From: a virus
Reading direction: 5' to 3' (one strand)
Length of the DNA stretch: 42,235 bases
Virus genome (UHGV): UHGV-1993760
The translations under genes were made by a program, and so were the position numbers. The notes beneath the pieces were generated by a model that saw nothing but the letters and a program-made list of their open reading frames with translations, searched no databases and was not told the DNA's origin. Each line of letters opens with the position of its first letter. Position 1 is the stretch's first letter. Below, piece after piece: positions 25,951 to 26,027 of this stretch.

Positions 25951-26027
25951 TGGACCGCCACCGGAGACTCGAACCTCGCACTCTCAACTTAAAGGGTTGA
26001 CTCTCTTTCCTGATGAGCTAGTGGCGG
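25951..26027 (-). tRNA. tRNA-like gene, putative anticodon UUU (Lys), with non-canonical features
   Basis: 7-bp acceptor CCGCCAC/GTGGCGG plus CCA, anticodon stem TCAAC/GTTGA with loop CCTTTAA (C at position 33), T-loop TTCGAGT with one A:C mismatch in the T-stem, weak D-stem. Confidence 0.45.

Follow-up and report, generated by a model that had tools for sequence, protein, structure and literature searches.

The Shiga toxin (Stx)-converting phages Stx2a_F349 and phiSTEC1575 carry, downstream of the antiterminator gene Q and upstream of stx, a gene annotated as tRNA-Arg (argN, anticodon UCG) that lies between ileZ and argO. In phage T5, a phage-encoded tRNA-Lys rescues infection from the tRNA-cutting defense system PARIS (PMC11464382). 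The 42,235-nucleotide stretch of the virus genome UHGV-1993760 analyzed here (the window) contains, on the minus strand at positions 25951-26027, a homologue of argN that encodes a 77-nt RNA with a cloverleaf fold and the anticodon UUU. This is almost certainly an argN-derived tRNA gene of lysine (Lys) type. Together with the adjoining tRNA gene with anticodon CAU, it is ~88% identical to the argN-ileZ pair of Stx-converting phages, and its homologue in phage PhiR47_1 and in PPompW prophages is annotated as tRNA-Lys. The reading that we favor, which joins this identity to a role against anticodon nucleases, is given a probability of roughly 0.45.

The RNA reads CCGCCAC-UA-GCUC-AUCAGGAAA-GAGA-G-UCAAC-CCUUUAA in its 5' half and GUUGA-GAGUG-CGAGG-UUCGAGU-CUCCG-GUGGCGG-U-CCA in its 3' half. 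The acceptor stem is a perfect 7 bp beginning with C1:G72, and the discriminator U73 is followed by a CCA that is encoded in the gene. The anticodon loop CCUUUAA comprises C32, C33, the anticodon U34-U35-U36, A37, and A38. The D-stem is imperfect (G10.A25), and the T-stem contains an A51.C63 mismatch next to G52.U62; G10.A25 and A51.C63 are the positions left unpaired in the cloverleaf. The near-universal U8, A14, G18-G19, G53:C61, and T-loop UUCRA are all present, the exception being U33, which is replaced by C. ARAGORN calls a tRNA-Lys(ttt), the second of four adjacent minus-strand tRNAs. The first-pass annotation, which was made from the letters of this DNA, described these features correctly: the C at position 33 of the loop CCUUUAA is borne out by the sequence, by ARAGORN, and by the Rfam alignment, and the A:C mismatch in the T-stem, the C1 start with its perfect acceptor stem and encoded CCA, the imperfect D- and T-stems, and the place of the gene within a tRNA cluster are all found as stated.

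In a search of 501 bases, the RNA scores 33.1 bits against the Rfam tRNA model (RF00005), with an E value of 3.6e-5 and a match to the full model (1-71). This barely exceeds the gathering score (29 bits); membership is marginal. The three neighboring tRNAs score 65.6 to 72.5 bits in the whole-window run (65 to 74 is also given). In that run, made at the gathering threshold, the speed filters lost 25951-26027, which the shorter search recovers as an above-threshold match; this filter effect is relevant to low-scoring phage tRNAs generally. The minimum free energy (MFE) structure of the single sequence is not a cloverleaf, and its z-score is −0.81. Thermodynamics alone would not separate this RNA from chance; homology does. 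Hundreds of homologues occupy the same position in lambdoid prophages, and across 48 distinct alleles 96.5% of the pair-cells of the cloverleaf are paired, against 28 to 54% when the partners are slid, with changes on both sides of the pair at 7:66, 27:43, 30:40, and 51:63. Because the homologues keep both the position and the cloverleaf, the fold of the window tRNA is more than a chance pairing.

The window tRNA and the argN of Stx phages share the 77-nt scaffold (~80 to 88% identity), C1:G72, U73-CCA, and the D-loop, and A51.C63 is found in some argN alleles as well. They also occupy the same slot, after an ileZ-type CAU tRNA and between Q and the late genes. On this comparison, C1, U73, and A51.C63, which might look irregular in the window gene, come from the argN scaffold and are family traits. 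The differences lie in the anticodon (UCG in argN, UUU here), in position 33 (U in argN, C here), and in three paired changes, namely, 7:66 from U:A to C:G, 27:43 from C:G to U:A, and 30:40 from G:C to A:U. Since the Lys and arginine (Arg) types differ by paired changes, the fold has been maintained, although these differences separate just two clades, Arg and Lys, and represent few events only. The downstream partner differs too, being argO in the Stx-phage array and usually a host-derived Thr(UGU)-Gly(UCC) pair beside the Lys type. The Arg anticodon of the argN family (UCG, rarely UCU) is absent from the window tRNA, which has UUU; the gene is therefore a reassigned offshoot of the argN family and not argN itself. 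An Arg(UCU) scaffold exists (contig L022), and the simplest route from it to the Lys type would take two transitions, C35U and U33C.

The anticodon and position 33 are strictly linked. Family members were gathered from IMG/VR by exact sequence patterns. When positions 33 to 36 were left free, the pattern retrieved U33 with UCG (n=93), C33 with UUU (n=37), U33 with UCU (n=1), and U33 with GCG (n=1). Scaffold-specific scans of all IMG/VR gave no match to a Lys scaffold with a base other than C at position 33 and no match to an Arg scaffold with C33. The Lys scaffold with C33 occurs in at least 119 contigs, all of them with UUU (124/124 copies in 15 alleles, among the matches listed). The first Lys-scaffold patterns fixed the anticodon arm, and the census was repeated with anchors only in the T-arm and the 3' acceptor; this gave 123 copies in 18 alleles, and C33-UUU-A37-A38 was invariant in all 123. 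In the same census position 32 varies (C, U, or A) and the stems carry singleton changes. Several Lys-type variants preserve wobble pairing, and one repairs A51.C63 to A:U. A family member is present in 1,830 of 5,426 complete Escherichia coli genomes. The best match reaches at least 90% identity in 768 records of these ~5,426 genomes (~14%), with C33-UUU in every case inspected. RefSeq annotates the major Lys-type alleles as tRNA-Lys. The option of a functional variant tRNA-Lys, raised in the first-pass annotation, finds support in this respect at the level of the family, given the paired changes, the invariant C33-UUU-AA, and the RefSeq call; it sits less well with the window allele, which is weak (see below).

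C33 itself is not unique among phage tRNAs. Unselected bystander phage tRNAs have it in 2 of 91 cases, and all four bystander Lys(UUU) tRNAs have U33. Some IMG/VR contigs fetched by chance are rich in C33 with various anticodons (8 of 23 bystander tRNAs in L374 and 2 each in L270 and L349), which suggests that U33C is systematic in certain sets of phage tRNAs. One prophage lineage carries two "Lys" genes side by side. In L119 (3480-3555, minus strand), as well as in L390, L404, L408, and L433, a thrU-derived gene has changed its anticodon from UGU to UUU with U33 kept and with A26G; these five contigs represent one event. The argN-derived Lys allele of this lineage shows U73G and a repaired A51:U63. 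The conversion of thrU may point to a need of the array for a Lys(UUU) gene, and dosage explains it at least as well as evasion does.

The setting of the gene is that of a late operon. The features of the array and its surroundings are as follows.

30354..30722, minus strand: Q antiterminator (Pfam Phage_antitermQ, E=3.3e-47), upstream of the array
26131..26844, minus strand: AraC-type helix-turn-helix (HTH) gene (Pfam HTH_AraC/HTH_18), ending 26 nt upstream of the first tRNA
26029..26104, minus strand: first tRNA of the array, anticodon CAU, ileZ homologue (ARAGORN; Rfam, 72.5 bits; tRNA-Ile in RefSeq)
25951..26027, minus strand: argN-family Lys(UUU) tRNA with C33 (ARAGORN; Rfam tRNA, 33.1 bits; alignment to argN)
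25873..25948, minus strand: tRNA-Thr(UGU), identical to host thrU except for A14C (ARAGORN, Rfam, comparison with the host gene)
25795..25869, minus strand: tRNA-Gly(UCC), identical to host glyT except for C6:G67 changed to U6:A67, which is compensated (ARAGORN, Rfam)
25470..25528, minus strand: pair of U-tract hairpins that resemble terminators, ~270 nt downstream of the array (consensus scan only)
24006-24335, minus strand: holin (Pfam Phage_holin_3_7), downstream of the array
23626-24009, minus strand: M15 endolysin (Pfam Peptidase_M15_4), downstream of the array

On the minus strand the order is Q, a C5 DNA methylase, a DUF262 and HEPN gene pair (on the opposite strand), a small open reading frame (ORF), the AraC-type HTH gene, and the tRNA array, followed by the terminator-like hairpins, a TerB-like gene, the holin and endolysin, the terminase, and the head genes. 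Spacers within the array are 1 to 3 nt, with the CAU tRNA 1 nt upstream of the Lys gene and the Thr gene 2 nt downstream of it. The same layout of Q, tRNA array, and lysis genes or stx is found in related phages and prophages. The array lies in the leader region of the late operon, the place where Stx phages carry ileZ-argN-argO-stx. The first tRNA is closely preceded by a promoter-like site, of a kind no commoner in this DNA than after shuffling. The Thr(UGU) and Gly(UCC) genes were captured from the host, as copies of thrU and glyT in the thrU-tyrU-glyT-thrT operon; Salmonella relatives retain the Tyr gene between them, and both genes of PhiR47_1 are identical to those of the host. The A14C of the window Thr gene affects a universally conserved position and is the only such copy seen.

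The favored reading starts from an argN-family tRNA whose anticodon has switched from Arg (UCG or UCU) to Lys (UUU), always together with U33C. From the array position between Q and the lysis genes, the tight packing, and the encoded CCA, we infer that the tRNA is made on the Q-dependent (Q-modified) late transcript and released from the array by RNase P and 3' trimming. With the anticodon UUU and U36-A37-A38, it is predicted to be a substrate of lysyl-tRNA synthetase (LysRS) and of the enzyme for N6-threonylcarbamoyladenosine (t6A) and to read AAA and AAG. The anticodon U34-U35-U36 is reportedly the main identity set of LysRS. For the bacterial t6A enzyme, which has no base-specific contact with U33, 36-UAA-38 is sufficient (PMC13276492). 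The family would then serve as a spare tRNA-Lys that sustains late translation, to the benefit of the phage, when anticodon nucleases cut host tRNA-Lys(UUU). We rank this role first among those considered and hold it tentatively. Codon compensation is a weak motive, because no rarity of lysine codons calls for it and a single cluster in E. coli K-12 already contains at least five tRNA-Lys(UUU) genes.

Host tRNA-Lys(UUU) is a target of PrrC, RloC, and AriB and a minor substrate of OLD. PrrC cleaves tRNA-Lys on the 3' side of U33, and RloC removes the wobble nucleotide (PMC2610378). AriB of PARIS cuts between positions 40 and 41 and needs U36AAU39C40 before the cut and A41 after it, together with U16 (PMC12409363). 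P2-OLD, the classic anti-lambda system, cuts tRNAs with paired CNG motifs at 28-30/40-42 (PMC12445682). The window RNA departs from the AriB determinants at four positions (U39G, C40U, A41U, and U16C), and with CAA at 28-30 and UUG at 40-42 it contains no CNG. All mapped AriB and P2-OLD recognition elements are absent because the body derives from an Arg tRNA. The argN at positions 3001-3077 of L002 has the paired motif C28-A-G30/C40-U-G42, which is the reported P2-OLD cut motif, and the Lys subtype has lost both CNG halves by the single compensated change at 30:40. Enzymes of the PrrC/RloC type recognize the loop itself, so that a change of body alone cannot evade them. Position 33 lies on the 5' side of the PrrC/RloC cut and donates the 2'-OH at the PrrC site, and U33C alters this nucleotide. 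That U33C was fixed along with the Arg-to-Lys switch as a block on PrrC/RloC-type nucleases, which cut 3' of nucleotide 33, is conceivable but improbable.

Comparison with described lysine tRNAs is instructive. Both T5 tRNA-Lys(UUU) and the window tRNA are phage encoded, have the anticodon of the host tRNA that AriB destroys, and differ from it at U39, A41, and U16. However, T5 tRNA-Lys has a Lys-like body, U33, and A73, and its resistance and rescue were shown experimentally, whereas the window tRNA has an Arg-derived body, C33, and U73 and is known from sequence; the two have no homology beyond being tRNAs. Host tRNA-Lys(UUU), of the lysT family, has UUU, C32, A37, A38, and the 36-UAA-38 t6A determinant in common with the window tRNA, but it has G1:C72, A73, and U33 in place of C1:G72, U73, and C33, and the anticodon stem and D-loop also differ. 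Overall identity between the two is little above that of any two tRNAs. Eukaryotic cytoplasmic initiator tRNAs work with C33, and these initiators and the scattered phage tRNAs with C33 indicate that this base is compatible with a working tRNA, although they are unrelated to the window tRNA in sequence, anticodon, and role.

Several observations weigh against the favored reading. All C33 copies belong to one closely related clade, and the invariance of the loop may reflect recent origin and not selection. The missing AriB and OLD determinants come with the Arg body and need not be an adaptation. PARIS-resistant T5 tRNA-Lys keeps U33, so that C33 is not needed for evasion of AriB, and C33 as an AriB-evasion change was rejected on this ground. 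The yeast gamma-toxin is indifferent to U33C (PMC2275089), and the literature searched held nothing usable on PrrC with C33. The discriminator A73 of E. coli tRNA-Lys is replaced by U73. The adjacent Thr(UGU) gene is host-like and still has the sites for AriB and OLD, and little or no rescue from OLD was seen with host tRNA-ThrU (PMC12445682); the array as a whole is therefore not tuned for evasion. The idea that the whole array is an evasion cassette likewise found no support, the Thr and Gly genes being host copies with AriB and OLD sites. HepS, which targets tRNAs for Thr, Ile, and Ser but none for Lys, was rejected as the relevant nuclease. To these points are added the erosion of many Lys-type alleles at universal positions (U8C, the deletion of U12, and G18A), which RefSeq does not call, and the state of the window allele, which is the weakest of those measured.

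Three substitutions set the window allele apart from the common Lys allele. C25A breaks G10:C25, U45A lies in the variable loop, and C62U turns G52:C62 into a wobble pair that adjoins the A51.C63 mismatch. U45A is common to PhiR47_1; C25A and C62U are the defects specific to the window. The window allele has an Rfam tRNA score of 33.1 bits and a cloverleaf energy of −16.7 kcal/mol, against 40.4 bits and −20.1 kcal/mol for the PhiR47_1 allele and 44.4 bits and −22.3 kcal/mol for the major Lys allele. The values for argN are 43.0 bits (F349 copy) and −28.3 kcal/mol (commonest argN allele), and host lysT has a cloverleaf energy of −26.4 kcal/mol. The PPompW allele, in which U12 is deleted, falls below the reporting cutoff. 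RefSeq skips the U8C alleles and one G18A allele. The Lys family is a mixture of well-kept and eroding copies, with the window copy near the eroded end.

The window allele is rare: it is absent among the IMG/VR contigs collected and occurs in 11 E. coli records at ≥99% identity, including CP013662. The RefSeq annotation of CP013662 includes the Ile, Thr, and Gly tRNAs on either side but not the identical Lys copy. In that record (L005, ~20001-20077) the locus tags are RS12785 (Ile), RS12775 (Thr), and RS12770 (Gly), RS12780 is missing at the Lys-like gene, and an earlier annotation may have held a feature at RS12780 that was later dropped. The window is not the CP013662 prophage, since a close match extends only over 24797-27372 (97.5%) and 37067-42235 (99.7%). 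With 33.1 bits, G10.A25, and an unannotated copy in CP013662, the window allele bears marks of a pseudogene, yet it lies above the Rfam threshold. Its acceptor stem, anticodon arm, and T-loop are intact, and bona fide argN itself reaches only 43 bits. With one D-stem pair broken and its T-stem weakened, the window copy probably has lower activity than the common allele, and it may be turning into a pseudogene. The first-pass annotation had held that a low covariance score with a pseudogene call would speak against a working tRNA; for the window allele, the score is low (33.1 bits) and a RefSeq call is lacking, which goes half of that way.

The alternative that survives best is that the Lys gene is a decaying or pseudo-tRNA that hitchhikes in the array, with its fold kept only for RNase P and with no decoding, least of all by the window copy. 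On this account the Arg-to-Lys switch and U33C would have yielded a tRNA that functions poorly. RNase P recognition would be needed to free the 3' end of the upstream tRNA-Ile2, which lies 1 nt away, and to process the cluster. We regard this as rather unlikely and nonetheless as a serious rival, especially for the window allele. That allele has 33.1 bits where its neighbors have 65 to 74, its MFE structure is not a cloverleaf (z-score, −0.81), and its cloverleaf energy is weaker by 5.6 kcal/mol than that of the major allele and by 11.6 kcal/mol than that of argN. RefSeq omits the identical copy, as it does the U8C, U12-deletion, and G18A alleles. Furthermore, defects cluster in the D-arm and the 5' half, while the acceptor is perfect and T-arm changes either preserve wobble pairing or are repairs; the acceptor stem and T-arm are the parts that RNase P needs. 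The spacers of 1 to 3 nt are in line with this account, and other window tRNAs have drifted too, for example the Thr gene with A14C at a universal position. On the other hand, loop positions 33 to 38 are invariant in more than 120 copies even though position 32 and the stems vary, and the anticodon stem was altered by two compensated pairs that RNase P does not require. A51.C63 was repaired in one lineage, and the major allele is a tRNA-Lys in RefSeq that scores like bona fide argN (44.4 against 43.0 bits). The pseudo-tRNA that the first-pass annotation offered as one option is in keeping with the low score of the window allele and its lack of a RefSeq call, but the family is kept like a tRNA-Lys gene.

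A second alternative holds that the gene is a plain supply tRNA, an extra tRNA-Lys(UUU) that boosts late decoding of AAA and AAG, with C33 neutral and tolerated. This resembles the accepted codon-compensation role proposed for ileZ, argN, and argO, and the location and family are those of the rare-codon tRNAs of Stx phages. Host thrU and glyT are reproduced verbatim in the array, and such copies are able only to add dosage. In the L119 lineage, the thrU copy that changed to UUU keeps an ordinary U33 and a stem-loop like that of the host, which is a better fit to dosage than to evasion. The supply role nevertheless leaves unexplained why C33 never reverted and why the scaffold is not that of the host, and the common lysine codons and the five or more tRNA-Lys(UUU) genes of K-12 leave little need for compensation. 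We give it little credence.

It is very improbable that the tRNA alters decoding, whether by partial charging with arginyl-tRNA synthetase (ArgRS), which would place arginine at lysine codons, or by an effect of C33 on frame maintenance or wobble at AAA and AAG. This is the nearest surviving form of the earlier suppressor-like idea. It draws on the tRNA-Arg scaffold with A20 in the D-loop, A20 being a major ArgRS identity element, and on a discriminator that is not the A73 of tRNA-Lys. U33 also enforces the U-turn that is needed for ribosome binding (PMC13276492). However, the other major ArgRS element, C35, has been lost, a sense triplet in a 7-nt loop makes no nonsense or frameshift suppressor, and the lambda-type slippery sequence GGGAAAG is not enriched (8 observed against 6.5 expected). 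For the last reason, a link to the lambda G/GT frameshift, with GGA read by Gly(UCC) and AAG by Lys(UUU), was dropped. A suppressor or frameshift-suppressor tRNA, as the first-pass annotation had entertained, is excluded by the sense anticodon UUU and the normal 7-nt loop on a 5-bp stem, where no alternative register pairs.

Other features of the window and of the related loci deserve mention. Between Q and the array lies a two-gene module that runs opposite to the late genes (27432-29281, plus strand, with 29250-30290 on the minus strand). Its first gene encodes a DUF262/GmrSD_N protein (PADLOC NsnA, 1.7e-45; PD-T4-2_A, 1.3e-26) and its second a 229-aa HEPN nuclease (Pfam HEPN_MAE_28990, 3.8e-16), and the C5 cytosine methylase adjoins them. 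The module is probably anti-phage defense cargo. The possibility that tRNA-Lys in general provides self-immunity to it was rejected, as none of 81 Lys-type loci has the module, which in ST131 and MLI109 stands beside ordinary Ile-Arg-Arg arrays. A C4 antisense RNA (34886-34973, minus strand, 82 bits) adjoins the Hfq-binding small RNA isrK (34998-35074, minus strand, 62.7 bits), and the two form a P1/P7-type antirepressor control module, as in Gifsy-like prophages. The ORF at 21298-22122 (minus strand) is a full-length match to K88-type fimbrial subunits (Pfam Fimbrial_K88, 2.7e-58) and lies between the lysis genes and the terminase, which is an odd position for such cargo. Small RNAs were also found in L119 (10573-10748), L008 (2860-3031), and L002 (1292-1503): related prophage loci have sok antitoxin RNAs of the hok/sok type (107 to 122 bits), and the Stx phage locus has the small RNA STnc100 (158 bits) downstream of stx.

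The existence of the Lys gene is not new, since several records of phages and of RefSeq already list it as tRNA-Lys. That it arose from argN through a change of anticodon, that C33 is absolutely linked with UUU, and that annotation pipelines drop many alleles were not found described in the literature searched, which contained nothing usable on argN, ileZ, and argO and no paper on this tRNA. For annotation, the consequence is that standard pipelines treat the alleles unevenly, calling some and omitting others without notice, among them that of the window. Much current work concerns defenses that cut tRNA (PrrC, PARIS, OLD, HepS, and retron-Septu) and the phage tRNAs by which they are evaded, in which the validated cases of escape come from large lytic phages such as T5. 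If true, the anti-nuclease role would extend this idea to temperate lambdoid prophages, present in ~14% of complete E. coli genomes with pathogenic lineages among them, and would show a route to a new isoacceptor by an anticodon switch on an existing phage tRNA. The strict pairing of C33 with UUU turns the question whether position 33 controls nuclease sensitivity into one of a single nucleotide, C33 versus U33. If U33C does block PrrC and RloC, about one in seven E. coli genomes would hold a prophage-borne, cleavage-proof tRNA-Lys made from a retooled phage tRNA-Arg, and the bulk use of C33, as in L374, would be a general viral countermeasure to loop-cutting tRNases.

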